Part shown: positions 9,363 to 63,400 of the stretch, piece after piece
Layout of the letters: each line of letters opens with the position of its first letter
Position numbering within the stretch: position 1 is the stretch's first letter
Source: Subdoligranulum variabile
GTDB taxonomy: Bacteria; Bacillota; Clostridia; Oscillospirales; Ruminococcaceae
DNA length: 64,000 nt
Assembly (NCBI GenBank): GCA_004554775.1
Contig: SFKI01000010.1
Coordinates: 23,184-87,183 of the forward strand
Direction of reading: 5' to 3'
The notes under the pieces: generated by a model
The model's input: the letters and a program-made list of their open reading frames with translations, nothing else
Database searches by the model: none
What the model was told of the DNA's origin: nothing
Made by a program: the position numbers and the translations under genes

Positions 9363-9800
9363 CTGCCTGCAGGGCGAAAGACTCCTCTCGAGGGAAACCA
9401 CAGACTGTCGAAAAAGTGCTCTGTAGGGGCGCACAGTGTGCGCCCGTGCTCATTTCCCGCATGAGTAGCTTTTCCGGGAATGCGCTGCCACGTCAAGCTT
9501 CCGGGCGAACACTGTGCGCCCCTACAGTCTCTACTATAGAGTTTCTTTTGGCCCCGGAGGGGTCAATGTGGAGGGGGACGGAAAAGCGTTAAGAAAAATG
9601 CAGCACTCCTGCATTTTTTAGCTTTTTCGTCGCACGACCACCTCTTTGGGGTTCCTAGGGGCGAGCAGCCCCTAGGCCGGGCCTCCCGCGCGGTCGGAAG
9701 TAGCGGGCACCTTTTCGGTTCCTTTTGGGTGTCCAAAAGGAACAACTAACGGCAGTAGCCCATTAAACACAAGGGAGCCCGCCGCAAGGTGGCGGGCCCC
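9363..9800. repeat. Mosaic intergenic repeat block M1 (REP-like doublet plus C, D and T modules)
   Basis: GTAG-hairpins at 9423-9445 (+) and 9503-9525 (-). The C module GTTAAGAAAAATGCAGCACTCCTGCATTTTTTAGC lies at about 9588-9622. The D hairpin GGTTCCTTTTGGGTGTCCAAAAGGAAC lies at about 9718-9744. A T-type hairpin with loop GCAAGGT lies at about 9776-9797. Confidence 0.85.
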
Positions 9801-10908: not shown

Positions 10909-10918
10909 ATATTGCCCC

Positions 10919-10995
10919 GGCCCTGCCCATCTTGCGGCAGGGCTTTTTTTCGTGGGGCCGCAATAAAAAGGGGAGCCCCCACAAAGTGGCGGCTC
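10919..10995. terminator. Back-to-back double terminator cassette between convergent lrgB and the AAA+ gene
   Basis: GGCCCTGCC-CATCTTGC-GGCAGGGC plus a T7 run on the plus strand. This is followed by ..GCAATAAAAAGGGGAGCCCCCACAAAGTGGCGGCTCCC, a hairpin preceded by an A-run that acts as a terminator on the minus strand. The cassette is nearly identical in architecture to 18177-18255. Confidence 0.8.
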
Positions 10996-11023
10996 CCTCA
11001 AAGGAATCCGTGTGCGAAAAATC

Positions 11024-13078
11024 TCAATCCAGCTCAAAATCCCCCGGCAACAGCAGGGCGAGATCCGCGTCGGCATCTGCTACCAGGCGGCGGGCTTGGT
11101 TGAGGATCGCTTTTTCCAGCACATTGCGCGCCATGCGGCCGTTGCCGTTGGTTGCGGCGTCGGCGGCCTGCTGCGCATCATACCAATTTATAAGCGGCTC
11201 CTTGCAGCTTTCGTCCAGGATATAGCCCTTGCTCTTGGCAATCGACAGGGTGATGCGGTACAACTCCTCGCCGGTATAGTCCGGGAACTCGATCTGGTTC
11301 GGGAAGCGGCTTGCCAGGCCGGAGTTGGCCGACAAGAACAGCTGCATCTCCTTGGTGTATCCGGCCAGGATCACGACCAGGTCGCCGCGGTTGTCCTCGA
11401 TGCCCTTGACCAGCGTGTCAATGGCCTCCAGGCCAAAGCTGTCCTCGCCGCCGCGGTACAGGCTGTACGCTTCGTCGATAAAAAGCACGCCGCCCAGCGC
11501 ACTCTGGATGACCGTATTCGTCAGCGGGGCGGTGTGGCCGACATAGCGTCCGACGAGGTCGGCACGGGTCACTTCGACCAGTTGCCCGCCGCGCAGCGCA
11601 CCGATGGCCTTGAGATACTTGGCCAGAATGCGCGCGATCGTCGTCTTGCCGGTGCCGGGGTTGCCGGTAAAGATCATGTGCATGTTGACCTCGGCCACCT
11701 TGAGGCCCTGGGCCTTGCGGCGCTGCTGAGCCTGCACGTTTTTGGCGATATCACGCACATAATTCTTGACCTCTGCCAAGCCGACGATGCCATCCAGCTC
11801 TGCCTCGACCGCATCGACATCGCCGCGGTACTGCTGCGGCAGCAGCGCCAGCAGGTCAAACGGCTCGCCGCCCGCCACGCTGAGCAGCAATTTTCCATCC
11901 GCAGCAGTCAGCGCCGCAGGGGTGCCGTCGGCTGGCGGCTCGTCGGCGTCCAGCACGTACTCGGCCAGCGCGCGGTAAGCGGTCTCGCAATAATCGCGCA
12001 TCGCCTGCATGCCGGTCGTTTTGCCGTACTGCGCTGCCAGCAGGTCGCGCACGTCGGCACCCATCGTCAGGGCCAGCCCGCACTGCTTGCGCACCCGCTG
12101 CGCCAGCCAGTTCAGCTCGCGCGCGGCCACGGCGGCCAGCGCTTCGGGCGTGAACGCCTGGGTGCGGCAGATGTCGCCGGACAGCGCATCCACGAACCGC
12201 GCACCGAACTTATCAGCCAGCGCGGTCTCGTCTTTGTTCGAGAAAAACACAAAATATTTACCGCCAGCCGTCAATTCCCCGATGGCCCCGGGCGCGAGCG
12301 CCGTGCCCACGTCCACGAGGATCCCGCGCTGCAGCACGTACCGGCTGCTCAGCGAGAGCGTGCCCTCGATGGCCAGCGTTGACAACATATTTAAATAATT
12401 TGCGGCGCAGCTCTCGTAGTGGTCGAACGCCAAAACCTCCGCATCGGACTGCAGCGCCGCGTACAGATCCTGCAGGAAAAGCTTCTCCTGCGCAGGGCCG
12501 GGGTAGAGCGATAAATCCATCTGTTCAATGGCCGCGCTGCGCAGAACGCCGCGCGTTGCCAGCTCGTCCACCACGCAGGTCAGCGCGTAGTGGCGGCCGG
12601 TGCCGTTGGGGCCGCACAGCAGCAGCAGGTTGCGCGCGCGGGCCGTGTCGCCTGCCGTGCCCATCACAAACGGGCGGCGGAATGCCTTGACCAGCGCCGA
12701 GACAAACGCATCCTGCCCCAGCACCTGGGCCTTGATCTTGTCCGCCACGCCGCCAAAATCGGTGCTGGCCGGCTTGGCCGCTTCGGGCGTCGGCGCGGCA
12801 GTCGTGCCGCCCAGCAGCCCGTCCTGATGCAGCGATTTTGTCAGCTCGCTGCTCATCTTGCGCACACTTTCGGCGGTGGCAGCGCCCGCCTTTTGCACGG
12901 CATCCAGCGCATTGCTGGCGGCGCTCTGCCGCTTTTGGGCGGCGGTCAGCGCATCCAGGGATGCCTGCATCTGCTCTACGGCATTGCTGGCTTCCTCGGC
13001 TTGCTTTGACGTGGCGGCGTACTTTTTGCCGCCCATCAGGCCGCGCACCCAGGCATCATACTGGTCCTCAAGGCTCAT
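11024..13078 (-). CDS. Tandem AAA+ ATPase with a SpoVK/CbbX-like C-terminal module and a degenerate N-terminal P-loop module
   Basis: The C-terminal half has MHMIFTGNPGTGKTTIARILAKYL (Walker A), GGVLFIDEAYSL (Walker B), VILAGY and ASRFPNQIEFPDY, as in the SpoVK/CbbX family. The N-terminal half has LLLLCGPNGTGRHYAL, a Walker A-like motif with Arg in place of Lys. A coiled-coil-like N-terminus is present. The start overlaps the upstream stop (ATGA). Confidence 0.85.
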   Translation of the reverse strand: MSLEDQYDAWVRGLMGGKKYAATSKQAEEASNAVEQMQASLDALTAAQKRQSAASNALDAVQKAGAATAESVRKMSSELTKSLHQDGLLGGTTAAPTPEAAKPASTDFGGVADKIKAQVLGQDAFVSALVKAFRRPFVMGTAGDTARARNLLLLCGPNGTGRHYALTCVVDELATRGVLRSAAIEQMDLSLYPGPAQEKLFLQDLYAALQSDAEVLAFDHYESCAANYLNMLSTLAIEGTLSLSSRYVLQRGILVDVGTALAPGAIGELTAGGKYFVFFSNKDETALADKFGARFVDALSGDICRTQAFTPEALAAVAARELNWLAQRVRKQCGLALTMGADVRDLLAAQYGKTTGMQAMRDYCETAYRALAEYVLDADEPPADGTPAALTAADGKLLLSVAGGEPFDLLALLPQQYRGDVDAVEAELDGIVGLAEVKNYVRDIAKNVQAQQRRKAQGLKVAEVNMHMIFTGNPGTGKTTIARILAKYLKAIGALRGGQLVEVTRADLVGRYVGHTAPLTNTVIQSALGGVLFIDEAYSLYRGGEDSFGLEAIDTLVKGIEDNRGDLVVILAGYTKEMQLFLSANSGLASRFPNQIEFPDYTGEELYRITLSIAKSKGYILDESCKEPLINWYDAQQAADAATNGNGRMARNVLEKAILNQARRLVADADADLALLLPGDFELD

Positions 13079-14262
13079 TGGTCATCCTCCCGGTCGGCTT
13101 TTTGGATTTGGCGGGGCAGCTTGTACGTGTAAAAATCTTTTGCAGTGCATCCGGCACGCCCGCCGCCCGCACAGGCGCAGGCACACGCGCAGCTGGAAGC
13201 ACAGGCGCAGGCGCAGCTGGACGCGCACCCGCTGCTGTGGCGGCCCACGCCGCCCCCGCGCGACGAGCCGCCGCCCGTGTGATAATTTTTGGGCGGGTCG
13301 GTGCGGTAGTAGCCCTTGGGGGGCGGGGCGGTGCGCGCCACGTGGATGGTGTGTACGCCGTTGGTGTACCAGTACCAGTCGTCGGGGTCAAGGCCGCTGC
13401 CGAAGCCGCCGCCCCACTCCGCCGAGCAGGATGCGGAAATAATAATCAGTGCTACGACAAAAATCAGCAGTGACACCACAACCACTGTCAGCCCGAGGAT
13501 CTCATCGGAGGTGAAATCGCCGGTGTTGCCGTTGTCATAATCGGCGGCGGTCAGGGCTGCGTCAGGGTCAAACTCGTTGGCGGTGGTTACGGGCACGGTC
13601 ACATGGATGGTGGCGCTCTGGCCGTGGCCCATCGGGCCAAAGTCCCAGATAAGGTACCCATCTTCCTCGCTGCTGTTGTCGGCCACAAAGCCGTCGCCGC
13701 TGCGCCAGCGCACCTGCATATGCTCAACGACGAGGTCGTCGAACCAGCCGGGCGTGAACTCAAAGGTCGCTGTACCGTCATCTCCAAGGCTGAACAGGTG
13801 GCTTTGATGCACCGAGAACGTGAACCGCACCCGGCTTTCGCCGCCGTTTTTCGCAGCTACCTCGGGCGCGTAGTAGCGCCGCGCAAACACGACCTTGGCG
13901 TAGCTGCCGCCGTCGCCCGAGTATTGCAGGTCGGAGATCGTGTCGGTCAGCGGGGTCAAATCCTCGGCGTAGGCGTTGGGCAGGCCGATCTTGACCCACG
14001 AGAGGTAGTCGGTCTGGTCGCCGCCGATGACCTGCCAGGTAATATCGTAGGTGATGTCCGCCGAGCCGTCTGCCCGCAGGTCCACCGTGACGAGATAGTC
14101 GGGAATATAATCCATATCCCCGTCATCAGCATACGGCGCGATATCGGCTGAATTTGCGGTGGAATCGTCGGCCTTGGCCGCGAAGGGGAACAGGAGCGTG
14201 GCTGCAACAAAAATGAAGAATAAAAAGGTGGTCAGGCGCGGATAAAATGTCTTTTTCTGCAT
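13075..14262 (-). CDS. Signal-peptide / single-TM protein with a Cys-Ala repeat cytoplasmic tail (ectodomain tentatively DUF2207-like)
   Basis: Signal peptide: MQKKTFYPRLTTFLFFIFVAATLLFPFAAKA. The ectodomain is about 250 aa. The TM segment is ILGLTVVVVSLLIFVVALIIISA. The tail is ...GGGSSRGGGVGRHSSGCASSCACACASSCACACACAGGGRAGCTAKDFYTYK. The gene is tightly packed between the rSAM and AAA+ genes. Confidence 0.75.
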   Translation of the reverse strand: MQKKTFYPRLTTFLFFIFVAATLLFPFAAKADDSTANSADIAPYADDGDMDYIPDYLVTVDLRADGSADITYDITWQVIGGDQTDYLSWVKIGLPNAYAEDLTPLTDTISDLQYSGDGGSYAKVVFARRYYAPEVAAKNGGESRVRFTFSVHQSHLFSLGDDGTATFEFTPGWFDDLVVEHMQVRWRSGDGFVADNSSEEDGYLIWDFGPMGHGQSATIHVTVPVTTANEFDPDAALTAADYDNGNTGDFTSDEILGLTVVVVSLLIFVVALIIISASCSAEWGGGFGSGLDPDDWYWYTNGVHTIHVARTAPPPKGYYRTDPPKNYHTGGGSSRGGGVGRHSSGCASSCACACASSCACACACAGGGRAGCTAKDFYTYKLPRQIQKADREDDQ

Positions 14263-14263
14263 A

Positions 14264-15649
14264 TCAGCACCCCTCCTGCATCGGTGTGTCGCCCAGCTGG
14301 CACAGCCGCTTCATGTGGGCGCTCTCGATCCGGATGGCACAGCACTCGGGGCTGCGCCAGATGCGGGGCCACGGGGTGCGCAGCATGTTGCCCAGGCCGT
14401 GGCCGGTCAGCCAGCTTTGGCAGGGCAGTACGGTGCCGTCGGGCGCGACCGCCATGTTGCTAAGGCAGGCACCGCAACTTGGGATCTGCGTAAAGCCAAG
14501 CCCGGTCAGGGTGTCCTCGTCCAGCCAGCCGGGGCTGGTGAAGTTCACTTCCATCCCGTGCGAAAGCGCAAAATCCATCGCAGGGCGCAGCGCGTCGGTA
14601 AGCTCTGCGGGGGTCAGGCGCACGCTGCGGCTGGCATCGGCATTGGCGTTGCCAGCCGGGATCAGCCCGCTGCACGTCAGGTATCGGATGCCCAGCTCAT
14701 GCGCAAATTGCACGGTGCTAAGATAATTTTTATTCAAGCTGCAGAGCGGCGTGTTCAGGCTGACGTTCAGCCCTGCGGCCAGTGCGTTCTTGATGCCGTT
14801 CACGGTGTCGGTGTAACCGTCCACGCCGACCAGCTCATTGTGTACGGCTTCGTAGGCAGAATAGAACGTAATTTGCACTGCGTCAAGGCTGGCGGCGCGC
14901 AGCTCCTTGCACATGGCGCTGGTCAGCATGCGGCCGTTGGTGTTCAGGCGCGTTACAAACCACTGCGCGGCCTGCACCAGCTTTACCAGATCGTGCCGCA
15001 AGGTCGGCTCACCGCCGGTAAAGGTCAGCTGCGGAATGCCGATGCTGCGGCATTTTTCGATGACCGCCAGCCACTGGTCGGTGTCCAGCTCGGGCACGGC
15101 GGAAAGCGGCTGATTGGCGGCGTAGCAGTGCAGGCATTTTTGATTGCAATGCCACGCGTTGTCCTTTATCATGGAGGAGATCATCAGGTCCATGCGGTGC
15201 GGCGCGGCCATGCGGTGTGCGTATTCGGCCAGCGAAAGGGGCTGGATGTGCAGCGGCGGCTCCTGGCCGCGCGCCACGGCGATGAGGCAGTCCAGCATCA
15301 TCTGCAAGTCGGATTCGATCTGCAAAGGCTCGGTCTTACGATAAATTTTACGTGTCGCGGCCACGGCCTGCGCGCGGATGGCCGACCAGTCGGCGTCTTT
15401 CAGCTCGGCACCGGCGTGGGGCTGCAGCGCTTCGATGAGGTTGGTCAGCAGAATGGCCCAGCTGAGATTCAGCGGCAGGATGTCCTGGCCGTTCAAAATG
15501 GCTACAAACGGGGTGGTGCGGTCGGGCTTGGTACACGGGATCAGGTGGATGCGCACGACGCCCGGGCCGTCGGGGTCAAGCGTAACGTGCCGCACGCGGT
15601 TCAAATGGCCGCGCAAAAACGCCCGCTCGCCGTAGGAGAGATGCTTCAT
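14264..15649 (-). CDS. Radical SAM enzyme with C-terminal SPASM domain and an N-terminal extension of about 165 aa
   Basis: CNQKCLHCY is a CX3CX2C cluster motif. TFTGGEPTL is a GGE motif. The C-terminal Cys-rich SPASM-like region is IPSCGACLSNMAVAPDGTVLPCQSW. The stop lies 1 nt from the downstream start. Confidence 0.88.
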   Translation of the reverse strand: MKHLSYGERAFLRGHLNRVRHVTLDPDGPGVVRIHLIPCTKPDRTTPFVAILNGQDILPLNLSWAILLTNLIEALQPHAGAELKDADWSAIRAQAVAATRKIYRKTEPLQIESDLQMMLDCLIAVARGQEPPLHIQPLSLAEYAHRMAAPHRMDLMISSMIKDNAWHCNQKCLHCYAANQPLSAVPELDTDQWLAVIEKCRSIGIPQLTFTGGEPTLRHDLVKLVQAAQWFVTRLNTNGRMLTSAMCKELRAASLDAVQITFYSAYEAVHNELVGVDGYTDTVNGIKNALAAGLNVSLNTPLCSLNKNYLSTVQFAHELGIRYLTCSGLIPAGNANADASRSVRLTPAELTDALRPAMDFALSHGMEVNFTSPGWLDEDTLTGLGFTQIPSCGACLSNMAVAPDGTVLPCQSWLTGHGLGNMLRTPWPRIWRSPECCAIRIESAHMKRLCQLGDTPMQEGC

Positions 15650-15799
15650 AGGGGATTTCCTCCCAAAACAGACTCGTGTCTGTTATAAATTTTGGTACAA
15701 TTTTTAATTTTTATAGGGAAAGTATATCATATTTACGGGGGAATTACAATAAGGGTTTGATTTTGGGGGAGGGGTGCGGCTGCCGGGGGGGGCGGCAGC

Positions 15800-16112
15800 G
15801 TAAGATTCTGCGGGCGAGCAATGCTCGCCCCTACAGTAGCCAAAATAGCAGGTGCAGAGTGTGGCTCCACTTCAAGGGGAGTCCAGACTGTCGAAAAAGT
15901 GCATTGTAGGGGCGAACAGTGTTCGCCCGGGGGATTTGATGGCAGCGCAAAATTGCACGGGCGGATATAGAATCCGCCCCTACGCCAATCAAAAATTTGG
16001 CCCCGAAGGGGTCAATCGGAGAGGGATGGAAAAGCGTTAAGAAAGGAAAGCCTTGCGGCGGCAGCCCATGATAAAAGGCCCAGCCGCAAGGTAGGCAGGG
16101 CTGGCCGCCGCC
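15800..16112. repeat. Mosaic intergenic repeat block M2
   Basis: GTAG-hairpins at 15812-15834 (-), 15906-15928 (+) and 15959-15983 (-). The y module TTTGGCCCCGAAGGGGTCAAT is present. CCTTGCGG/CCGCAAGG hairpins lie at about 16045-16110. Confidence 0.85.
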
Positions 16113-16213
16113 CCATCCACGGCGCAAAACAATCCGTAAATGCCTACAAATTGTATACATACCACCGTAAAAAATCCGACAGAATTTACCGGAATATCTG
16201 TGAATTTCCCCAC

Positions 16214-16242
16214 TTGCCAACAGCCTGAAAATGTGGCATAAT
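16214..16242 (+). promoter_or_regulatory. Sigma70-like promoter upstream of the small ORF and cls
   Basis: TTGCCA (16214-16219), 17 nt spacer, CATAAT (16237-16242). Confidence 0.4.
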
Positions 16243-16301
16243 ACTAAAGGAAGATCCGGGGTGTACACCCCCATTATAAATGTATAAGGAGGGGGAACCG
16301 C

Positions 16302-16463
16302 ATGCCGAATGGGATCTACATCCAGACGGAGTACCACGGCAAGCTGATCCGCAAGATCGTTTGCAACGGGGAAGAACGCTGGTTTATCGGATCTGATTGT
16401 GCCGTCACCTTCATGACCATGGATGATTGCATGGCCGAGATCGACGCACGTCTCCACGCCTGA
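16302..16463 (+). CDS. Small hypothetical protein (53 aa)
   Basis: A strong RBS (TAAGGAGGGGG) lies 6 nt before the ATG. The product is MPNGIYIQTEYHGKLIRKIVCNGEERWFIGSDCAVTFMTMDDCMAEIDARLHA. It falls below the ORF-track length cutoff. Codon usage resembles neighbouring genes. Confidence 0.5.
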   Translation: MPNGIYIQTEYHGKLIRKIVCNGEERWFIGSDCAVTFMTMDDCMAEIDARLHA

Positions 16464-16576
16464 TCCTCGCACGGTTGGCGGCTTTGCCCGCCTGCACCCC
16501 TCGGCTTGCCGCCCCCCTGCGGGGCCATGCCGGGGGCTTTTTCTTTTCAGTAGTTTCTACAAAAAAGGACATATCT

Positions 16577-18151
16577 ATGCGAAAACCACACAAACCGAAG
16601 GATTGGCGCTGGCTGCTGCATCGGGCGCTTTCGCTGGTGTTCAGCCGCACGGTCGTTACCATCGTGCTGGTGCTGGCGCAGGCCTTTTGGCTGTTCAGCC
16701 TGTTTTATTGGCTGGGCGACTACTCGCGCATCCTCTCCCGTATGGGGCTGGGGCTCAGTGCGCTGATGTGCCTGGCCCTTGTGCGCCAGGACTCGACCGC
16801 GCCGGAATTTAAAATCAGCTGGATGATTTTGTTTATGCTCATGCCCGTGCAGGGCGGGCTGCTTTACCTGCTTTGGGGCGACAAACGCCCGGCCATCGGC
16901 CTGCGCCGCCGCATGGAGCGTGCCGAAGCCGAGCTTGCCCCGCTGCGCACCGGGGACGCCGCCGCGCGTGCCGAGCTGCAGCGCCGCGACCCGCGCCTGG
17001 CCGAGACCGCCGATTACCTGCAAAACTACGCTGCTGCGCCGGTTTTTGGCGGAACTGCCGTCCAATATTACCCCGTGGGCGACGTGATGCTGCCCGATAT
17101 GCTGGCCGACCTGCGCGCCGCACAGCACAGCATTTTTGTGGAGAGCTTCATCATTGGCATGGGCGAGATGTGGGGGCAGATCCACGAAATTCTACGGCAA
17201 AAGGCCGCCGCCGGCCTGGACGTTCGTGTCATTTACGACGACGCCGGCTGCCTGAGCCTGCTGCCCCACAACTATGTAGATTTGTTGCGTGCCGATGGCA
17301 TCCGCGCGTTCAGCTTCAACCGCTGTGTGCCGGTGCTGAACCTGGTGCTCAACAACCGTGACCACCGCAAAATCATGGTAGTGGATGGCCGCGTGGCCTA
17401 CACCGGCGGCGTGAACTTGGCCGATGAATACATCAATAAGGTGACTCGTTTCGGCCACTGGAAGGACAGCGGCGTCCGGCTGGAGGGGCCCGCCGCGCGC
17501 AGCTATGCGAATGTGTTTCTCACATTCTGGCGGGCGCATTTTCCCGATGAAGCGTTGGATTATACCGCCCTGCTGCCCGAAATCGCCCCCGTGGCAGACA
17601 CCGGCGGCACGCTGGTGCAGCCCTTTGCCGACAGCCCCGTTGACCGCGAGGTCGTGGCCAAAAATGTGTATCTGGAGTTCATCAACCAGGCGCAGCGCAG
17701 CCTGCGCATCTGCACGCCTTATCTGATTTTGGACAATGACCTGCTTACGTGTTTAAGGTTGGCCGCCAAGCGCGGCGTGGATGTGCGCATCTACACCCCC
17801 GGCGTGCCGGACAAAAAGACGATCTACCAGCTTTCGCGCAGCTATTTCCCGTATCTGCTCAAGGCCGGGGTGAAAATTTACAGCTACACGCCCGGATTTT
17901 TGCACGCTAAAACGTGGCTTGTCGATGACCGCGCCGCCGCAGTCGGTACGGTGAACCTTGATTACCGCAGCCTGTATCTGCATTTTGAAAACAGCACCGT
18001 CCTCTACGGCGGCGAGGTGCTGCACGATATTTTGCGGGATTTCGAGTCCATCGAGTCCGCTTCCCGCCAGATCGGCCTGAAGGATTGCCGAAATGGATTT
18101 TTGGGCAGCATGCTCAGTGCCTGCCTGCGCCTGGTCGCCCCTTTGTGCTGA
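16577..18151 (+). CDS. cls: Cardiolipin synthase (two PLD/HKD domains)
   Basis: N-terminal TM helices are followed by NNRDHRKIMVVDG (HKD 1) and FLHAKTWLVDD (HKD 2). The start was taken at MRKPHKPKDWRW. Confidence 0.92.
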   Translation: MRKPHKPKDWRWLLHRALSLVFSRTVVTIVLVLAQAFWLFSLFYWLGDYSRILSRMGLGLSALMCLALVRQDSTAPEFKISWMILFMLMPVQGGLLYLLWGDKRPAIGLRRRMERAEAELAPLRTGDAAARAELQRRDPRLAETADYLQNYAAAPVFGGTAVQYYPVGDVMLPDMLADLRAAQHSIFVESFIIGMGEMWGQIHEILRQKAAAGLDVRVIYDDAGCLSLLPHNYVDLLRADGIRAFSFNRCVPVLNLVLNNRDHRKIMVVDGRVAYTGGVNLADEYINKVTRFGHWKDSGVRLEGPAARSYANVFLTFWRAHFPDEALDYTALLPEIAPVADTGGTLVQPFADSPVDREVVAKNVYLEFINQAQRSLRICTPYLILDNDLLTCLRLAAKRGVDVRIYTPGVPDKKTIYQLSRSYFPYLLKAGVKIYSYTPGFLHAKTWLVDDRAAAVGTVNLDYRSLYLHFENSTVLYGGEVLHDILRDFESIESASRQIGLKDCRNGFLGSMLSACLRLVAPLC

Positions 18152-18176
18152 TAGCCTTTTGTTGCAAATCCTGTCC

Positions 18177-18255
18177 GGCCCTGCCCATTTTGCGGCAGGG
18201 CTTTTTTTGTGGGATGCCGCAATAAAAAGGGGAGCTGCCGCAAGGCGGCAGCTCC
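18177..18255. terminator. Back-to-back double terminator cassette between convergent cls and the ndpA-like gene
   Basis: GGCCCTGCC-CATTTTGC-GGCAGGGC plus a T7 run on the plus strand. Then GCAATAAAAAGGGGAGCTGCC-GCAAGGC-GGCAGCTCCC, which acts on the minus strand. Confidence 0.8.
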
Positions 18256-18269
18256 CGTAAAGCGGGGCA

Positions 18270-19624: not shown

Positions 19625-19958
19625 GCGGTGACGTGAGATTGCGCGGGCGGATATAGAATCCGCCCCTACGCCAACATGATTTTGGCTCCGGAGGGGGCAA
19701 TCGGAGAAGAAGCAAAAAGCGTTAAGAAACGTGCAGCACTCCTGCACGTTTTAGCTTTTTGTTTCTTCGACCACAACTTTGGGGTTCTTAGGGGCGAGCG
19801 CTTGGCGGCGCACAACGAGCGCCGCCAGTTTGCTGCGCAAACCCGCTCGTGCGGTTATTCGCCCCGCTGGGGCGACTTCTCTTTTGGTCACAAAAGAGAA
19901 GGAATAACGGAGGCCGCCCACTAAAAAAGGGAGTCACCGCAAGGTGGTGACTCCCGCC
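19625..19958. repeat. Mosaic intergenic repeat block M3. Its terminal T hairpin serves as terminator for the minus-strand thioesterase gene
   Basis: A class-A GTAG-hairpin lies at 19645-19669 (-). The y, C, F and D modules are present. The T hairpin GGGAGTCACC-GCAAGGT-GGTGACTCCC spans 19929-19955. Confidence 0.85.
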
Positions 19959-19968
19959 GGAGCGCGAT

Positions 19969-22357: not shown

Positions 22358-22382
22358 TATTCTGCTTACTATTCTGCCTTAC

Positions 22383-23092
22383 CGGGCGTTGCCACCTTGC
22401 GGCAACGCCCTTTTTTAGTGGGCAACTACCCGTAAGCCTTCCTTTTTGGACACCCAAAAAGGAAGCGAAAAAGGTGCCCGCGGGGTGGTCGAGAAATCAA
22501 AAAGCTAAAACGTGCAGGAGTGCTGCACGTTTCTTAACGCTTTTTGATTCCTCTCCGATTGACCCCTCCGGGGCCAAAAACATGTTGGCGTAGGGGCGGA
22601 TTCTATATCCGCCCGACATGTACGCGTATTTGCATGGGGCGTCGAGGACGCCGCCCCCTACGAACTACGCGTAAAGCCTCCCTTGTGTAAAGGGAGGTGG
22701 CACGGCGGAGCCGTGACGGAGGGATTGGAGCGTGTATGGGCGTGTTGGGCTATATCCGTAAGGTCACAATCCCCCACCGCCTTCGGCGGAGCCCCCTTTA
22801 CACAAGGGGGCCTTTAACTCTACCCCCATAGAGTTTATTTTGGCCCCGAAGGGGTCAATGTGGGAAGAGCACAAAGCGCCGTTAAGAAAATGCAGTCACT
22901 CCTGCATTTTTAGGCGCTTTGTGCTCTGACCCACCTTTTTGGGGTCCCTAGGGGCGAGTAGCCCCTAGGCCGGGGTTCGCTGCCTCGGAACAGCGAGACT
23001 TTTTTCGTTTCCTTTTTTGGTCACAAAAAAGGAAAGCCTTGCGGGAGAAGCCCATTATAAAAGGGTGTCCCCGCAGGGTGGGGACACCCGGC
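22383..23092. repeat. Mosaic repeat block M5: two elements in inverted orientation, bounded by T hairpins
   Basis: Left T hairpin: GGGCGTTGCC-ACCTTGC-GGCAACGCCC (22384-22410). D, C and y modules follow. A class-A GTAG-hairpin lies at 22590-22614. The second copy is inverted (y at about 22838, C at about 22882, D at about 23008). Right T hairpin: GTGTCCCC-GCAGGGT-GGGGACAC (about 23066-23090). Confidence 0.85.
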
Positions 23093-23120
23093 GCAAGCAC
23101 AAAAATATAGGCAAAACCTA

Positions 23121-26038: not shown

Positions 26039-26048
26039 TGTGCTTATC

Positions 26049-26347
26049 GGGCGTTGCCACCTTGCGGCAACGCCCTTTTTTAGTGGGCAACTACCCGTAA
26101 GCCTTCCTTTTTGGACACCCAAAAAGGAAGCGAAAAAGGTGCCCGCAAAAAATGCAGGAGTGCTGCATTTTTCTTAACGCTTTTCCGCCGCCCGACGGTT
26201 TGACCCCTCCGGGGCCAAATTTTTGGTTGGCGTAGGGGCGGATTCCATATCCGCCCGGGGAGTTTGGCGGTGACGTGGGATTCTTGCGGGCGAACAATGT
26301 TCGCCCCCTACCCGGTTTTAAAGGCTCCCCTCAAAGGGGGGCTTTAG
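26049..26347. repeat. Mosaic repeat block M7 (canonical short-form element: T-D-C-y-REP A-z-REP B-w)
   Basis: T hairpin at 26049-26075 plus a T-run. The D module is TTCCTTTTTGGACACCCAAAAAGGAA. A C module follows. The class-A GTAG-hairpin lies at 26232-26256 (+) and the class-B one at 26288-26311 (-). The w hairpin is AAAGGCTCCCCTCAAAGGGGGGCTTT. Confidence 0.88.
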
Positions 26348-26431
26348 ACGCCCGCGGCAAGCTTGCGTTATTGCGCAACGCCGCAGCCTGTGCTATAATA
26401 CCCCAAACAACCCAAATGCGAGGTGCATCCT

Positions 26432-33724: not shown

Positions 33725-34150
33725 ATTTTTGTAGGGGCGAGCATCGCTCGCCCGCGGGATTTTGCACTGCCGCTAAACTGCACGGGCGAACAATGCTCGC
33801 CCCTACAGCCCTTGTATGGTTGCCCCCCTACAACCAACCGTGCAATTTCACGTTGAGGTAAATGCCCACGGGCGGATATGGAATCCGCCCCTACGCCAAC
33901 ATGATTTTGGCCCCGGAGGGGTTAATCGGAGAAGAAACAAAAAGCGTTAAGAAACGTGCAGCACTCCTGCACGTTTTAGCTTTTTGTTTTTTCGACCACA
34001 TCTTTGGGGTTCTTAGGGGCGAGCGCTTGGCGGCGCACAACGAGCGCCGCCAGTTTGCTGCGCAAACCCGCTCGTGCGGTTATTCGCCCCGCTGGGGCGT
34101 TGGGTAGCATCCCATTAAAAAGGGTGTCCCCGCAGGGTGGGGACACCCGC
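33725..34150. repeat. Mosaic repeat block M10, between the terS fragment and terL
   Basis: GTAG-hairpins at 33731-33753 (+), 33784-33806 (-) and 33870-33894 (-). The y, C and F modules are present. The T hairpin GGGTGTCCCC-GCAGGGT-GGGGACACCC lies at about 34121-34148. Confidence 0.85.
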
Positions 34151-34179
34151 CGCGCAGCATAATTAAAGGAGTTATAAAA

Positions 34180-39039: not shown

Positions 39040-39235
39040 CTTAACGCCTTTGCGCCCTCTTCCACATTGACCCCTCCGGGGCCAAAATTTTTGGTACGTA
39101 GGGGCGGATTCTATATCCGCCCGGGGAGTTTTACGGTAATGCGAGATTGCCCGGGCGAACAATGTTCGCCCCTACACGGGTTTAATGGCTCCCCCTCGAG
39201 GAGAGCCACAGTTTGTCAAAAAACCATTTTCCCCT
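39040..39235. repeat. Mosaic repeat block M12, inside the head-tail joining gene set
   Basis: A y module is followed by a class-A GTAG-hairpin at 39098-39122 (+), a class-B one at 39153-39175 (-) and a w hairpin. Confidence 0.85.
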
Positions 39236-43353: not shown

Positions 43354-43369
43354 TTTTGTTTATGCCTGG

Positions 43370-44020
43370 CCGGGAGTCACCACCTTGCGGTGACTCCCTT
43401 TTTTAGTGGGTTTCTACCCGCTGTGTGTTCCTTTTGGAACCCCAAAAGGAACCGAAAAGGGTCCCGCTACTTCCGATAGCGCGCGCTTGGCGGCGCACAA
43501 CGAGCGCCGCCATCCCGCAAAGCGGGCCCGCTCGTGTGCTTCAAAGCCCCGCTGGGGCTTTGATCGCTGCGCGACCGCACAGCAGCCCGGCCCAGGGGAT
43601 TGCGGGGTTGCGAGCAAGGGGCCACGGTTGAGCGCAGCGAAACCGGGGAGCGAGCAATGTTCGCCCCAGCGGGGCGAATAACCGCACGAGCGAGTTTGCG
43701 CAGCAAACTGGCGGCGCTCGTTGTGCGCCGCCAAGCGCTCGCCCCTGGGAACCCCAAAGATGTGGTCGAGAAAGCAAAAAGCTAAAACGTGCAGGAGTGC
43801 TGCACGTTTCTTAACGCTTTTTGCTTCCTCTCCGTTTGACCCCTCCGGGGCCAAAAGAAACTCTATGGGGGTAGAGGGTGGCTCCCCTTGAGGGGAGCCT
43901 TTAAAACCGTGTAGGGGCGGGCAATGCTCGCCCGCAAGAATCCCACGTCACTGCCAAACTCTACGGGCGGATATAGAATCCGCCCCTACAGCCCACTTGT
44001 CCCCGCAGGGTGGGGACAAC
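43370..44020. repeat. Mosaic repeat block M13: long-form element of about 650 bp bounded by inverted T hairpins
   Basis: Left T: GGGAGTCACC-ACCTTGC-GGTGACTCCC (43372-43398) plus a T-run. D follows, then two F modules (inverted relative to each other, about 43485-43745), then C, y and w. A class-B GTAG-hairpin lies at 43911-43933 (+) and a class-A one at 43965-43989 (-). Right T: TTGTCCCC-GCAGGGT-GGGGACAA (about 43995-44017). Confidence 0.88.
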
Positions 44021-44071
44021 CGGTTAAGGCGCGAACATTGCCATCAAAAACGAAAGGAGCATCACCCCCAA

Positions 44072-49665: not shown

Positions 49666-49675
49666 CGCGTTCGGC

Positions 49676-50200
49676 GGCCCTGCCTACCTTGCGGCAGGGC
49701 CTTTTGTTAGAGGGCTTCTTCCGGGAGGTCTTCCTTTTTTGTGACCAAAAAAGGAAGCGAAAAAAGTCTCGCTGTTCCGAGGCAGCCGCTTGGCGGCGCA
49801 CAACGAGCGCCGCCATCCCGCAAAGCGGGCCCGCTCGTGCGCTACGCGCAATCCCCGGCCCAGGGGGCCCGCCCCCTGGGAACCCCAAAGGGGGGGGGTC
49901 GTTCGGCGGAAAAGCTAAAAAATGCAGGAGTGCTGCATTTTTCTTAACGCTTTTCCGCCGCCCGACAGATTGACCCCTCCGGGGCCAAATTTTGGTTGGC
50001 GTAGGGGCGGATTCTATATCCGCCCGGGGAGTTTGGCGGTGACGGTGATTCTTGCGGGCGAGCAATGCTCGCCCCTACGGTGACTAAAGGCTTTCCTTGA
50101 GGGGAGCCTTTAACTCTACGCCCCTAGGCCGTGCCCCGCGCCTCGGAAGTAGCGGGAGCCGCCCAAATAAAAAAGGGGACACCGCAAGGTGGTGTCCCCT
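49676..50200. repeat. Mosaic repeat block M14, between the phage lysis genes and the pilus cluster
   Basis: T hairpin GGCCCTGCC-TACCTTGC-GGCAGGGCC (49676-49701). D, F, C and y modules follow. A class-A GTAG-hairpin lies at 50001-50025 (+) and a class-B one at 50056-50078 (-). A w module follows. The inverted T is GGGGACACC-GCAAGGT-GGTGTCCCC (about 50175-50199). Confidence 0.88.
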
Positions 50201-57422: not shown

Positions 57423-60400
57423 ATGCGCGCGGCCGGGGGCTTTACGCTGGTGGAGCTGATGGTCGTGCTGGTCATTCTGGCCATTCTGGCGGGGCTCGGC
57501 GGGGCCGGGCTGATCGCCTATACCCGCCTGGCGCGGTTTGAGCATAACGAGGCCAACGCCCGCACCGTTTTCCAGACGGCGCAGATCGCCCTGACCCGCA
57601 AGGACACCGGCGGCGATATGGACGATTTTCTCAAGCAATTGGCCGCAAACGGCACCCAGAACGGCCACTTTACCGCCGAAGGCCTGCAAGCGCAGTACCC
57701 CACCGGCGCCGAGGATAAGGCCAAGGAGCTGAATGGCCGCATCGTGGCGCTGTACTACGACAAGGACGCCCCCGATACCGCCGCCAGCCAGCAGGTACAC
57801 GCCCTGCTCGACCCGTATGTTTACGACGAGTCGCTTTTTAACGCGTCCATCGTGCTGGAGATCGACAGCCTGACCGGACAGGTATACTCTGCTTTTTACG
57901 ACACAGCATCGGCAAAAATGCGCTTTTCTGCCGACGGGGACACCGACGGCGCGACCCTTGTTGACGACCGCAGCTACACCCACCGCCGCGAAGCTTCGCT
58001 GGTGGGCTACTACTCAGCCGAGGATACCGTCAACGTCGTCACCCTGAGCCAGACCCGCCTGAAGGTCAAGAATCCGCAGCTCATCAACAACGAGACCCTC
58101 ACCTTGAACTGGAGCGGCAACAGCCGGTATAACGACCTGGACACCATCTACGACGCCGAATTTTACAGCACCACAAGCGGCGATACCCCACTGCTCAAGC
58201 TGGAAATTGAATGGAGTAAAGTTGCAGGCTACGACCAGAACGCCCGCATCAAGGTCTACAAGCAGTACAATGCGGCCACCCAGACCTGGACGGACAGCGG
58301 CGAGACCTACTGCTTCCCGCTCAGCTACAGCAAGGGCCGTTTTATCCTGACGCTGGACGCCATGTGCGACGCCACGTTACTGCGCGCGGCGGAAAATGAC
58401 CAGACCGCAGCCAAGACGACGCTGTTCAGCATAACGCGGCTGGTCAGCGGCGCGCAGGATATCTATGTCAAGATGAAAGCACGCCCCAACGATGCTTTTG
58501 CAGATGCCTGCACCGAGAGCAAGGAGGCGCAGTCCAACACCGAGAACACCCTGTTTGCCGCGGGCAGCACAGGAACCAACGCTGCACTGAAATATTTCCG
58601 CCACCTGTACAACCTGCGCTGGGTCAACAGCGGCACCTATACATGGAATGACGGCACGTTGCCCCCCAACGCCGCGACCACGCTGGACTGGACCGACGGC
58701 AGCGTGACCGTCTACTGCGCGGGGGAGAAAAAGAACGAATCCGGGCTGACCGAACCCGTCGCCAAGGTGCCCAGCCGCACCGGCGAGGTCGTAGCCTGGC
58801 CGACCATCCCCGCCGTGGGCGAAAACGTCACCCTGACCGGCAGTGTGAACAGCCTAAAAATTGGCGGGGGCCACGTCATCATCAGCAACCTGCAGCTGCG
58901 CGGCACTTCGGTCGCGGCGCAGGAGCGCAGCAGCGGGCTGGACTACCGCAAGCGGGATCACTATGTGGGCCTGATTGGAGAAAACAGCGGTACACTGTCT
59001 AAAATCACCCTGCGCGACCCCGATGTGCAGGTCAATGCCGAGGTCGTGGCAAACGGTCAACAGCTGCCCGATGCCATGCCGATCGACGCGGACGGCACCC
59101 GGTATTTGCAGCCGCTTGCCGAGAAAGACACGGCCTACCGCGCACAAATTTACGCGGTGGGTGCGCTGGCCGGTGTGGATACCGGCAGCGTGACCGACTG
59201 CACGGTCGACCGCAGCCGCCGCCGCGGGGCCGAGGCCAAGGTCACGGCGGCGCTGACGTTTGGCAGCCAAACCACCAGCACCGCCCGCATAAACGGAACC
59301 AACATTACAGACGAGCCGCACGGCATGGGCGGGCTCGTCGGCTTTGCCATGCCTGCCGGCGGGGCGGCGCTCAGCGACCTGACGCTGGACAAAAACGTCA
59401 CCGTCGCGGGCCTGTTTACCGATGCCGATGCTGCCAAAAACAGCGGCGCTACGGCCAAAATCAGCACGGATGCAGCTGAAAAAGCACGCTATAACGCTAT
59501 TACGGATACGACCGCCACAAAAACGCTTTGGCGCGCTGTCGGCGTGGGCGGCGTGGCCGGTGTGCTGGACGTCACCAACCTGACGGGCACGAACGGCGCG
59601 GTGAGCACCCTGACCGGCATCACCAACCAGGCCACCGTGGTGGGCAACGGCTTTGCGGGCGGCATTGCGGGCAACCTGTACGCGACCGGCGACCGACCCG
59701 CCACCCTGACCAAGCTGAACAACGCGGGCACGGTGCGGGCAGGGGCCAACTACCAGGGCGGCACGGCACAAAAAAGCACGGTGCTGGGCCAGTTCTTTGG
59801 CGGCATTGCGGGCTGTGCCAGCAACCTGCAGCTGCAAAGCTGCACCAGCGCTACCCGCAGCGGCCTGAGCACTGCCGCCCTGACCAGCCTGGTGCGGGCG
59901 GGCTACGATGCGGACGGTACGCTGAACGAGGAAAGCCCCCTGAAAGGCGATTTCGTCGGCGGTCTGGTCGGCTTTGGCCGCGATATCGCCCTGACTGACT
60001 GCCGCACCGAGTCCGGCCATGTGCTGGGCCGCAGCTTTGTGGGCGGCTTTGTTGGCGGCTTTGTGGGCAGCGACCTGCAAACGTCCGGCGGCGAGAACAA
60101 CAGCTATGTGTTCGGCAACCGCTATGTGGGCGGCATTGTCTCGGTCAACGGCAAAAACAGCACGATCAAAAACATGACCAACAAGGGCCTTGTGGCGGGC
60201 TTGGGCAAAGGTGCCGCCTACGTGGGCGGCATCGCAGGCGTCAACGATGCGACCTGGGGCTTGCTGGAAAACGACGAACTGACGAGAAAAATTGCCGCGA
60301 CCCTGCAGGACAGCGCCAACAGCATGTCCACCGTCGAAGCGACCGATAAAAACCGCATCGACCTGCTGAACCAGCTCAGCCAGACCGCGGACGGCACGGA

Positions 60401-63400
60401 GTACTATGCCGATTTTGTCGGCGGCGTGGCGGGCTACAACGGCACCAACGCAAAGATCCTTTGGACGGCAGAGTCCGAAAACGGCGCGACGCTGGGCGCG
60501 GTGCTGTACGGCAACAATTTTGTCGGCGGCGTGGCGGGCTGCAACGCCCCCACGGCGTCCATTGTAAACGAACATACCACCACCCCCAACGTGACCGGCA
60601 CCATTGTGGCGACCGGTGACTGCGTGGGCGGCGCCATCGGCCTGAACGGCGCGGCCAGCCTGCCCGCCGTGCAGGTCAGCGCCAACAAAATGGAGGGCGT
60701 CCACTTTGTGGGCGGCGTTATCGGCGCGAACCTGCCGCAAAATCGTTTCGGGTTTGACAACGCGGACGGCACCGCAGCCCCGGCGGCTACCATCGGCACG
60801 GGCAGTCTGGTTGCTGACGGCGTCGCGGGCGGCATCATCGGCTACAACCGCGTGGTGCCGGACAACACCCTGCAAACCGCGCTGGCAGCTGAAAATACGG
60901 CCATCGCCGATGCACTGCGCGCGCTGCTGCCGACGTTTGACGACACCACCCACGCGCTTGCAGAGGACGGGCTGACCTCGGCGGGCACCCCGGTTACGCT
61001 GACGAGGCTGAGCAACCGGCTCAACATCAAGGCAAACGCCTACGTGGGCGGCATCATCGGCTACAACGCGGCGGGAACCAGCCTTACCCTGACCAACGCC
61101 GTCAACGGCAGCCAAAGCAGCGCCCAGTCTTACGGCGGCCTGGCCCGCAGCGACCCGGCGGACGCGGCCAACGGCGGCGCGTACATTTTCTATAACGGCG
61201 TCCCGCTGGGCGCGCTTGACCCGGGCTGCAGCGGCTACTTTGCGGGCGGGATCATCGGCTATGCGACGAAAAATACGACGCTGCAAAACTGCACCAACTA
61301 CGGCAGCGTGCAGCACCCCGTGGCGGCAGGCGGCCTGGCGGGCGTCAACGATGGCACGATCTCCGGCGGCAGCATGCAAAATTCCATGGGCAGCCAGCAG
61401 GAGAACTACCGCTATCTCGGCGGCATCGCGGGTATCAACAACGGCAGCATCACCAATGCGGCCCCGGCGGCGGGCGTTACCATCCGCGGCGGCACGAACA
61501 TCGGCGGTGCGGCGGGGTATAATACCGGCACCATCCGCCTGACCGAAGCCACCGGCAGGGTCGATGGCATCACCGCCGTCGGCGGCGTGGCGGGGTATAA
61601 TGTGGGCACGATTGTTGGCAATGGCGTGGGCAGCAAGGCTGCTGTCCAGGTCAGCGGCACCAGCCAGGTCGGCGGTATAGCGGGCGTGAATGGTACAACG
61701 GGTCGAATCAGTACCAGAAGCATAGACGAAAAAATCACCCTTACCAGCGCGACCAGCGTGACTGCCAACAACGAGGGCGGCGGTGCAGCAGGCCGCAACG
61801 AGGGAACGATCTGCAATGTCACCAACGAGGCGGGCCGCGTCCATGTTGATAACCAGTACATGGGCGGTCTGGCGGGCCGCAACTACGGGACTATTGAGGA
61901 CAGCAACTATTATAATAACAGCACATCCACCGATACGCTGTATGCGGGCGGCGGTTACGCAGGCGGCATTACCGGCTGCAACGAGGCCGGGGCCACGATA
62001 GATTCCGTGGGCATCGGCGGTCATGTGACTGCTGCTAACGGCGAGGCTGGCGGCGTCACGGCTCACAACTATGGACATATCAACCGCGCTGCTTTGCTGC
62101 ACGTTTACGTTCACAGTACGTCCAGCGCCATTGGCGGCGTTGCCGCAGTCAACGAGTACGCCCCCGATGCCACCAGAAATCCGCAGGATGCTGTCATTGA
62201 GGACGTTACCCTGCGCAGTGATGACTACGGCGTGACCCTGTACGGCCCGGCTACCAAGGTGGGCGGCTTGGTCGGCTACAACGCAGGTACGGTCAAAAAC
62301 GGCAAGGTTGAAGCAAAAACCCTCGATTTCTCCCACCTGACCGCCACCGCCAACACCGTAACGGCGGGCGGCGCCGTGGGCGAGAACGTCGGCACTGTCG
62401 GCGCGGTTACGGTCGAAACCGACCTGACCCAAAACATGGACAAATATTGCAGCCTGGGCGGCGTTGTCGGCAGTAACAGCGGTGCTCTGGTTCAGTGTAC
62501 CTATCAGGGCGCCATCGGGGACGGCAGCGGCATCAACGTCGTCGGCAGCACGGTCGGCGGCATCGCGGGCAGCAACAACGGTACCGTGCAGGGCTGCACG
62601 GTCAACCACATTACGCTGCACGTGCAGGGCGCGTCCAACGTGGGCGCCAGCCAGGACGCTGCCACCAAGATGGCAAACGCCGCGCACATCGGCGGCATCG
62701 TGGGCCGCAACAGCGGCAAGTTCGAAAACAGCCTGATCGCCACCGACAGCACCCGCAGCACGATCACCGCGCATGGCGGCTTTGTGGGCGGCGTGGCAGG
62801 CTCCAACAGCGGCAGCATCACCACCAGCGGCGGCAAGGATACGAAGGCCCTCGTGCAGCAAATCAACGACTGGCTGGCCGTGCCCTATAAAAAGGATGCA
62901 GACGGCACCACCACCACCGAGGTGGATACCGCCGCCCGGAACGCCAACCTGAACGCCATGGTCCGCGTGCTGACCAACGCCACCTACACCGGGGATGCCG
63001 GCAGCAAGCCGCAGGCCACCCAGAGCGCCGACGAAGCTGCACTGGTGACGAAGTTCAAGGCCCTGCAGGGCGTGGATGAAGTCTCCAAGAGCAACACCAA
63101 AAACCAGCTGAAAATCACGCTGAAAGGCGGGGATACCCGGGGCAGCTTTGCCAACGGCTACCTGGGCGGCATTACCGGCTTTAACGATGTAACGGGACAA
63201 ATCTCCGACAGCGCCAGCGGCCAGTGGTTTGTCTACGCTGACAATATCAACCAAAGCTGGGGCGCCGTGGGCGGCATCATCGGCCAGAACGAATCCAACG
63301 CCGACTCCACCAGCGGCCTTGTCAACCTTGCTGCCGTGCGCCGGTTTGTGCGCGGTACCCAAAACACCCCCGACGACGACACCAACGCTAGCAACGACCG

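Follow-up and report, generated by a model that had tools for sequence, protein, structure and literature searches.

Background

Among the peptide maturases of the radical S-adenosylmethionine (SAM) superfamily, SkfB and CteB bear a recognition element (RRE) for the precursors of peptides that are made by the ribosome and modified after translation (RiPPs), and SkfB has a twitch domain (PMC8172795). That an entire protein can be the substrate of a radical SAM enzyme has a precedent in QhpD, which acts on QhpC, and in both QhpD/QhpC and anSME/sulfatases a SPASM-type enzyme acts on Cys of a ribosomally made protein that stays functional (PMC8172795). The locus described here lies on the minus strand of a 64,000-nt stretch of Subdoligranulum variabile DNA (assembly GCA_004554775.1, contig SFKI01000010.1, positions 23,184 to 87,183); this whole stretch is referred to as the window. 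The locus comprises the genes for a radical SAM/SPASM-like enzyme, for a membrane protein with a Cys-Ala-rich tail, and for an AAA+ protein. On balance we favor the reading that the tail of the full-length membrane protein is the substrate of the enzyme, the first two genes forming a maturation cassette. The three genes were taken from a list of open reading frames (ORFs), and both the ORFs and the junction sequences agree with the positions and the 1-nt and 4-nt junctions reported in a first-pass annotation of this DNA:

14264-15649, minus strand, radical SAM/SPASM-like enzyme gene (461 aa), first gene in the operon
13075-14262, minus strand, membrane protein gene with Cys tail (395 aa)
11024-13078, minus strand, AAA+ protein gene (684 aa), a clade-specific accessory

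Like SkfB/SkfA, CteB/CteA (SCIFF) and PapB/PapA, the locus encodes a radical SAM enzyme with an extra N-terminal domain, a partial TIM barrel and a C-terminal SPASM/twitch-like Cys domain, and as in sactipeptide and ranthipeptide systems the candidate substrate is a disordered, Cys-rich repeat segment encoded beside the enzyme. Unlike the precursors of those systems (about 40-60 aa), the candidate here is the C-terminal tail of a membrane protein of 300-440 aa, encoded downstream of the enzyme, and no protease or exporter accompanies the pair; unlike StsB, SkfB, WgkB and other maturases, the enzyme of the window scores far below the cut-offs of their models. QhpC and the sulfatases differ from the candidate in being soluble enzyme subunits. 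Structures of anSME match the core of the enzyme model, and the anSME substrate motif C/S-x-P/A-x-R is absent from the conserved tail as read from the sequence; the QhpD and anSME families are not among the 25 best NCBIfam matches listed for the enzyme. The motif (CA)nGGGRAGC matches no described precursor found in the literature searched, where the one paper returned for GGGRAGC concerns the colon microbiota of lambs, and the system as a whole is not described in Pfam, NCBIfam, PADLOC or the literature searched (motif, SPASM with SpoVK, membrane-anchored precursors). The constant position of the enzyme gene directly ahead of the tail-protein gene, in hundreds of Clostridia from gut and rumen, hints at a so far undescribed pair of enzyme and substrate, the target of the modification being a full-length membrane protein and not a small peptide.

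Conserved pairing of enzyme and membrane protein

Loci were collected from two directions. In a motif-first scan (pattern GGGRAGC[ST]xK, one genome per species), at least 485 relatives were confirmed and the best 80 loci kept; in all 80, the gene directly upstream, in the same orientation, encodes a full-length ortholog of the enzyme (E 1e-140 to 1e-298, query residues from about 5 to 452, including the N-terminal domain). When the enzyme was used as the starting point, a tail protein with the motif was found directly downstream in six of six loci. The two genes are thus co-conserved in 86 of the 86 loci examined, and the neighborhood check that the first-pass annotation had proposed, i.e. whether the Cys tail persists beside orthologs of the radical SAM gene, found the motif in every one of them. 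The stop-to-start distance between the two genes is at most 18 nt in all 31 cleanly called loci, and in 22 of these 31 the genes overlap.

The genes flanking the pair vary among loci. No third gene family next to the pair is common across clades, including the loci that lack the AAA+ gene, and no protease, transporter or immunity gene is conserved beside it in the 86 loci. A separate small precursor was considered and rejected: upstream of the radical SAM gene, all ORFs down to a length of 20 aa were listed, ORFs of 15-95 aa around the cassette were clustered (L001-L084), and the small-ORF clusters shared between clades all proved to be antisense images of the conserved 5' coding region of the radical SAM gene. 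In agreement with the first-pass annotation, no conserved small ORF precedes this gene. Around the pair, neither the separate short precursor gene nor the protease and/or exporter by which a RiPP cluster is recognized is conserved. The notion that the three genes form a conserved unit did not hold, since about half of the loci lack the AAA+ gene; the conserved unit is the pair.

Carriers of the pair are labelled Gemmiger, Subdoligranulum, Faecalibacterium (metagenome-assembled genomes, MAGs), Allofournierella, Butyrivibrio, Pseudobutyrivibrio, Acetatifactor, other Lachnospiraceae and uncultured Clostridia, and protein searches returned thousands of clusters at 90% identity. In public databases the enzyme family is labelled only 'radical SAM protein' and the tail-protein family 'hypothetical protein'. 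The cassette also occurs in five MAGs with labels of Coriobacteriia or Saccharibacteria (L005, L047, L063, L067 and L073, labelled Collinsella, Saccharibacteria, Eggerthellaceae and Atopobiaceae). The label of L005, whose tail protein is 83% identical to that of the window, is probably a binning error, and the other four could be contamination or horizontal transfer.

The Cys-Ala tail motif

The candidate modification site occurs only once in the window:

13129-13227, minus strand, Cys-Ala motif of the cytoplasmic tail, residues 346-378, CASSCACACASSCACACACAGGGRAGCTAKDFY

Cysteines stand at residues 346, 350, 352, 354, 358, 360, 362, 364 and 372; a count in the sequence thus returns the nine Cys in 27 residues of the first-pass annotation. 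The stretch of the tail that spans the motif reads SSCACACACAGGGRAGCTAKDFYTYKL, and the form CACACACAGGGRAGC[S/T]xK[D/N][F/L]Y is near-invariant across the family, with the consensus (C-A)4-G-G-G-R-A-G-C-S/T-x-K-D/N-F/L-Y and usually more C-A or C-A-H/S-S-S units ahead of it. The segment SGCASSCACACASSCACACACAGGGRAGCTAKDFYTYKL is essentially unchanged in 120 relatives of 82-92% overall identity. Across 65 aligned sequences, the tail is invariant at C358, A359, C360, A361, C362, A363, C364, A365, G366, G367, G368, R369, A370, G371, C372, K375 and F377; in an alignment of 96 sequences with about 30% identity to the window protein, C360, A361, C362, A365, G366, G368, G371, C372 and K375 are still invariant, together with G93.

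A motif-blind HMMER search of 1.84 billion representatives (E ≤ 0.001) defined a tail-protein family of 546 representatives at 50% identity. G-G/S-G-R/H-A/V-G-C follows C-A repeats in 101 of the 150 best members, and many of the others are fragments or frameshifted calls.

Several long representatives without the motif resemble frameshifted or truncated gene calls on high-GC contigs. The tails of P0127, P0154, P0208, P0229 and similar members, such as LRVRLRVELRVRL or RVRVHVHAQAEE, read like an out-of-frame Cys-Ala motif, pointing to frameshifts in the assembly of metagenomic data or in its gene calls. Among 20 long motif-less representatives listed, about five seem genuinely motif-free: P0204 and P0244 are ectodomain homologs in which a CxxC...CxxC zinc-ribbon-like tail replaces the motif, and P0175, P0261 and P0269 have neither.

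The region just ahead of the motif is Gly/Ser-rich, and the number of tail Cys varies from 4 to 14 among family members, as might be expected if the Cys-Ala run were ordinary low complexity and its adjacency to the enzyme incidental. The codons of the motif speak otherwise: TGC (232) and TGT (203) are both used, as are all four codons of Ala and of Gly, in loci of 32% to 64% GC. This free synonymous choice places the constraint on the peptide and not on a DNA repeat, and the core motif is nonetheless invariant in length and sequence. Together with the pairing in 80 of 80 motif-first loci, the codon data effectively refute this explanation; the co-occurrence in all 86 loci and the coupled junctions, found across Gemmiger/Subdoligranulum, Allofournierella, Lachnospiraceae, Butyrivibrio and others, stand against it as well.

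Topology and relatives of the membrane protein

The AlphaFold2 model of the membrane protein predicts a hydrophobic helix (residues 7-24), consistent with a signal peptide or anchor, followed by the strands of a beta-sandwich (51-224; predicted local distance difference test score, pLDDT, about 90) and a transmembrane helix (252-278); residues 282-395 are predicted to be disordered (pLDDT < 50). The tail was placed on the cytoplasmic side because the ectodomain is acidic, the tail net basic and the N-terminus positively charged. A tail so predicted, disordered and cytoplasmic, could be reached by a cytoplasmic iron-sulfur enzyme.

The ectodomain matches the luminal domain of Ost1/ribophorin I and the N-terminal domain of M1 aminopeptidases weakly (TM-score about 0.3); the protein has no NCBIfam match and no relative in the PDB by sequence. 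A match to DUF2207 (PF09972) over residues 53-92 is weak and sub-threshold (17.9 bits vs 24.4, E 0.004). DUF2207 proteins likewise have an N-terminal extracytoplasmic beta-sandwich, one or more membrane spans and a Gly-rich C-terminal tail, and the window protein is set apart from them by its sub-threshold score, its single transmembrane helix, the unique Cys-Ala motif and the obligate pairing with a radical SAM gene. In the literature searched, DUF2207 and radical SAM were not found together in any paper.

A Cys-rich, repeat-like core with a conserved flank resembles the precursors of ranthipeptides and sactipeptides (PMC8172795), and the enzyme resembles SkfB, SuiB and CteB; the locus might then be a classical RiPP pathway with an oversized precursor, whose modified tail is cleaved off and released as a bioactive peptide. 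We regard this as improbable. The tail is predicted to be cytoplasmic, no protease, transporter or immunity gene is conserved in the 86 loci, and the ectodomain and the transmembrane helix are conserved with the tail, which suggests that the whole protein is the functional product; nothing suggests either cleavage or export of the tail.

The radical SAM enzyme

The following regions of the enzyme are referred to below; the first was read from the sequence, the second rests on the conserved C392, C395, C410, C436 and C450 and on the Pfam SPASM match, and the third was taken from the AlphaFold2 model with DSSP:

15125-15148, minus strand, CX3CX2C radical SAM cluster motif C168/C172/C175 (CNQKCLHCY)
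14297-14476, minus strand, SPASM/twitch-like C-terminal Cys region, residues 392-451
15170-15649, minus strand, N-terminal domain, residues 1-160, candidate RRE-like peptide-recognition domain

C168, C172 and C175 are invariant across the alignments of the enzyme family, and the GGE motif (FTGGEPT, residues 210-216) is invariant or nearly so in alignments A2 and A3. The Pfam score for Radical_SAM (PF04055; 65 bits vs a cut-off of 29.5) places the enzyme in the radical SAM superfamily, and SPASM (PF13186 / TIGR04085) scores 32.2 bits vs a cut-off of 21.5 over residues 392-451. Seven further Cys are kept family-wide (C303, C326, C392, C395, C410, C436 and C450).

No NCBIfam equivalog cut-off was reached. 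The best matches (NirJ2, archaeal MoaA, AhbC, PqqE, GeoRSP and WgkB) score 76-90 bits vs cut-offs of 325-650. For the cofactor families, the scores (NirJ2, 89.9 vs 500 bits; MoaA, 83 vs 325; AhbC, 83 vs 650) exclude membership in NirJ/NirJ2, AhbC/AhbD and MoaA, and maturase equivalogs, including SkfB (TIGR04403), StsB (NF045574), WgkB (NF050035), PqqE (TIGR02109) and MftC (TIGR03962), give 45-90 bits vs cut-offs of 265-725. Since all of these scores are far below the equivalog cut-offs, the enzyme, as judged by sequence profiles, belongs to no characterised cofactor or peptide-maturase family; the profile search proposed in the first-pass annotation thus leaves it outside the characterised cofactor clades, the best match being NirJ2 with 90 bits vs 500.

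A model of the enzyme was built with AlphaFold2 on an alignment of 68 sequences (pLDDT 83.5; predicted TM-score, pTM, 0.85). Its N-terminal domain contains strands at residues 20-24, 32-37, 48-52 and 56-60, followed by helices at 62-78, 85-102 and 108-126 (DSSP), and is conserved family-wide in H21, T23, P26, H35, P38, N53, G54 and an APHRMD motif. The RRE fold is winged-helix-like, with three strands and then three helices, and lies N-terminal to the barrel. In searches with Foldseek, the best PDB match of the model is SkfB (E 1.6e-14, 414 aligned columns), followed by SuiB, CteB and TigE, and these four align over essentially the full length of the model; anSME, PqqE, MoaA and the viperins align to its core only (about 320 residues). 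The predicted structure thus most resembles peptide maturases with a recognition domain (SkfB, SuiB, CteB), and the assignment of the N-terminal extension as an RRE-like domain, made in the first-pass annotation, is plausible: the predicted fold and the full-length structural matches are consistent with it for the N-terminal residues up to about 160.

In three homologs of the enzyme (P0388, i.e. L085:5001-6878; P0341; P0380), the N-terminal part is a fused VanZ-like membrane domain (PF04892) that would hold the enzyme at the membrane; downstream of the fusion in L085, the tail protein is still encoded. A role in anti-phage defence was considered and rejected, as PADLOC gave only generic viperin-core and AAA matches.

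Proposed modification of the tail

In the mechanism that we propose, the first gene would provide a cytoplasmic radical SAM enzyme with an N-terminal domain of the peptide-binding type and a SPASM/twitch-like auxiliary cluster domain, and the second, translationally coupled gene a type I membrane protein with signal peptide, beta-sandwich ectodomain, one transmembrane helix and a disordered cytoplasmic tail that ends in (C-A)n-GGGRAGC-S/T-x-K-D-F-Y. Most likely, the enzyme recognizes this tail by binding to it and alters it post-translationally by radical chemistry at or beside the Cys-Ala units. Intramolecular thioether crosslinks of the sactionine or ranthionine type would be the most plausible chemistry and, by analogy with the structural neighbors, the most likely; other radical chemistries at Cys or Ala are possible. 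What results would be a membrane protein that carries its modification permanently, and no secreted peptide. In Gemmiger, Subdoligranulum and Allofournierella, a third coupled gene would add a CbbX-type AAA+ remodeler, which may engage the C-terminal tail.

The suggestion of the first-pass annotation that the Cys-rich tail is the likely substrate agrees with the pairing in 86 of 86 loci, with the motif in all of them, and with the placement of the enzyme outside the cofactor families. We infer that the tail is the substrate because the motif is invariant, including its Ala and Gly residues, while the ectodomain is only about 30% identical among relatives across the family and the enzyme 45-53% identical across the carrier lineages; because the pairing has no exception, the junctions are coupled and there is no alternative conserved partner; because the tail is predicted to be disordered and cytoplasmic, and the full-length structural matches of the enzyme are peptide maturases; and because the VanZ fusions would hold the enzyme at the membrane.

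Several points weigh against this proposal. The 80 motif-first loci carry the motif by construction, so that the independent evidence linking motif and enzyme consists of the six enzyme-first loci and the motif-blind family search. The N-terminal domains of seven orthologs gave no match to Pfam PqqD at E up to 10, a profile of the domain gave no relevant match in the PDB, and the full-length Foldseek alignments to SkfB, SuiB and CteB cover this domain with a high root-mean-square deviation. The full SPASM pattern comprises seven Cys (CX9-15GX4C, a gap, CX2CX5CX3C, a gap, and C) and binds two auxiliary clusters. Of the features that the first-pass annotation had read in the enzyme, the CX3CX2C and GGE motifs and a SPASM region above the Pfam cut-off are borne out, but the canonical Cys pattern is incomplete: CX14(GX4)C is present as C395-x9-G405-x4-C410, and the CX2CX5CX3C block is absent from the enzyme in the family alignments, which leaves the set of auxiliary clusters uncertain. 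The part given to the AAA+ protein, which may act on the tail, is drawn purely by analogy with CbbX, which acts by pulling the C-terminal tail of its client (RbcL). Finally, metal binding is within the capacity of CxCxCxC motifs, and the tail could thus serve as a ligand site and not as a substrate.

This last point leads to the main rival explanation, in which the tail binds a metal or an iron-sulfur cluster, the membrane protein either docks the enzyme at the membrane or is a donor or acceptor of electrons or clusters, and the substrate of the enzyme is another molecule, e.g. a lipid, an envelope precursor or a cofactor. The CxCxCxC spacing resembles metallothionein-type ligand sets, and P0204 and P0244 bear a zinc-ribbon-like tail in place of the motif on a homologous ectodomain; the enzyme has similarly low scores to cofactor and lipid enzymes (NirJ2, MoaA, AhbC/D, GDGT-MAS), and the VanZ fusions fit any membrane-proximal role equally well. 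Simple metal ligation has no need of the invariant Ala and Gly between and after the Cys, however, and the invariance of the small residues between the Cys would argue for recognition by an enzyme active site. The best full-length structural matches, moreover, are peptide maturases with an N-terminal recognition domain, and no other conserved partner or pathway gene lies beside the pair. We therefore consider a metal- or cluster-binding tail unlikely, though well ahead of release of the tail as a peptide, and retain the tail as the candidate substrate.

The AAA+ protein

Two modules are predicted in the 684-aa protein:

11027-11818, minus strand, C-terminal CbbX/SpoVK/EccA-type AAA+ module, Walker A GNPGTGKT, Walker B LFIDEAY (NCBIfam and PDB matches)
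11819-12778, minus strand, N-terminal Clp/Hsp100 D2-like AAA module, residues 101-420, Walker A GPNGTGRH, Walker B LAFDHYE (profile vs PDB)

The Pfam scores of the C-terminal module (PF00004, 70.9 bits; AAA_lid_6, 40.6 bits) identify it as AAA+, and its PDB matches are CbbX (3zuh/3syl, E 6e-57) and EccA1 (E 1e-48). In NCBIfam it scores 304 vs 423 bits for SpoVK, 239 vs 467 for EccA and 236 vs 459 for CbbX, all below the equivalog cut-offs; by sequence, the protein is assigned to the shared SpoVK/CbbX/EccA subfamily only. A profile of the N-terminal module matched ClpE (E 1e-6) and ClpB/ClpC (E 3e-4) in the PDB over about 290 residues. The motifs of this module are conserved in 41 orthologs, and its Walker A motif (GPNGTGRH) is degenerate, so that the module is probably catalytically dead. 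The first-pass description as a double AAA+ protein with a SpoVK/CbbX-like C-terminal half is thus correct as to the two modules and the C-terminal half, and has to be qualified for the N-terminal Walker A. In contrast to CbbX, SpoVK and EccA, the protein has an N-terminal coiled-coil region and the degenerate Clp-D2-like module, and is confined to one carrier clade.

The pair is followed by an ortholog only in L001-L040, L064, L072, L083 and L086, i.e. in genomes labelled Gemmiger, Subdoligranulum or Faecalibacterium and in Allofournierella genomes; the remaining loci lack the gene within 7 kb. It stands outside the core, as a lineage-specific accessory. At NCBI, the protein is named 'AAA family ATPase' of an uncultured Gemmiger sp.

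Operon organization and other features of the window

The radical SAM and tail-protein genes are joined by TGA, one base and ATG, with a GGAGGGG ribosome-binding site upstream, and the tail-protein and AAA+ genes overlap in ATGA, with a GGGAGGA site upstream. The signals at either end of the locus are:

15721-15749, minus strand, promoter-like site TTGTAA-17-TATACT with extended TG, about 70 nt upstream of the radical SAM start codon (consensus scan, pattern match only)
10965-10997, minus strand, intrinsic-terminator-like GC-rich hairpin GGGAGCC...GGCTCCC followed by TTTTT, directly after the AAA+ stop codon (sequence and scan)

With coupled junctions, a promoter-like site before the first gene and a hairpin after the last stop codon, the three genes look like a single operon. 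The hairpin sits within a repeated intergenic module (family D5). No RNA elements or tRNAs were found in the window.

The intergenic regions of the window are packed with mosaic palindromic repeat modules resembling repetitive extragenic palindromic (REP) elements, each in 3-8 copies (e.g. GGGCGAGCAATGCTCGCCCCTAC, GGGCGGATATAGAATCCGCCCCTAC and TTTGGCCCCGGAGGGGTCAAT...GCGTTAAGAAA; terminator-like, CCGGCCCTGCC...GGCAGGGCTTTTTT). They were located at 9380-9670, 10915-10996, 15790-16070, 18170-18260, 19640-19960, 22380-23110, 26040-26350, 33750-34170, 39040-39180, 43360-44040 and 49670-50200, and fill both the gap upstream of the radical SAM gene and the gap downstream of the AAA+ gene. At 60121-62823, at least six copies of a coding repeat with a period of about 45 nt (consensus GGCGGCATCGCGGGC...AACGGC; family D12) point to a large repeat protein at the window's end.

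In the window, the AAA+, tail-protein and radical SAM genes form a block with orf53 and a cardiolipin synthase gene (11024-18151) between lrgAB and a gene of the NA37 family. The same block, from AAA+ to cardiolipin synthase, lies between transketolase genes and prfC in L001-L003 (tail protein about 83% identical), and the different flanks look like a local rearrangement. As orf53 (16302-16463) and the cardiolipin synthase gene (cls) adjoin the cassette only in the closest relatives, they were rejected as parts of the system. In L001 and L002, a prophage-like segment with an AAA_25 protein and terminase large-subunit domains (L001:16634-21194; L002:18112-21194) lies a few kb downstream of the cassette, past prfC and a YitT-family gene.

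Implications

SPASM maturases are usually studied with small precursors, and genome-mining tools seek short ORFs; the cassette described here would be missed by such tools, because no short ORF lies beside the enzyme. As a more speculative and rather doubtful extension, the radical SAM enzyme might turn the invariant (Cys-Ala)4-GGGRAGC in the cytoplasmic tail of a membrane receptor-like protein into a protein-derived, sulfur-rich, crosslinked structure or cofactor. This would be a covalent or metal-binding module of a new type, from which the protein would derive its function, for example transmembrane redox or metal sensing. If true, integral membrane proteins would be subject to a class of radical SAM modification for which no counterpart has been described. 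The clade-specific AAA+ partner raises the question of whether a CbbX-type motor acts on the modified tail.

The cassette is widespread in abundant gut and rumen Clostridia, e.g. Gemmiger, Subdoligranulum, Butyrivibrio and other Lachnospiraceae. Should the tail prove to be the substrate, RiPP-type chemistry would reach the cytoplasmic tail of an integral membrane protein, the invariant motif of about 20 residues would be open to direct biochemical testing, and the annotation of two large families, one now labelled 'hypothetical protein' and the other 'radical SAM protein', would have something to build on.

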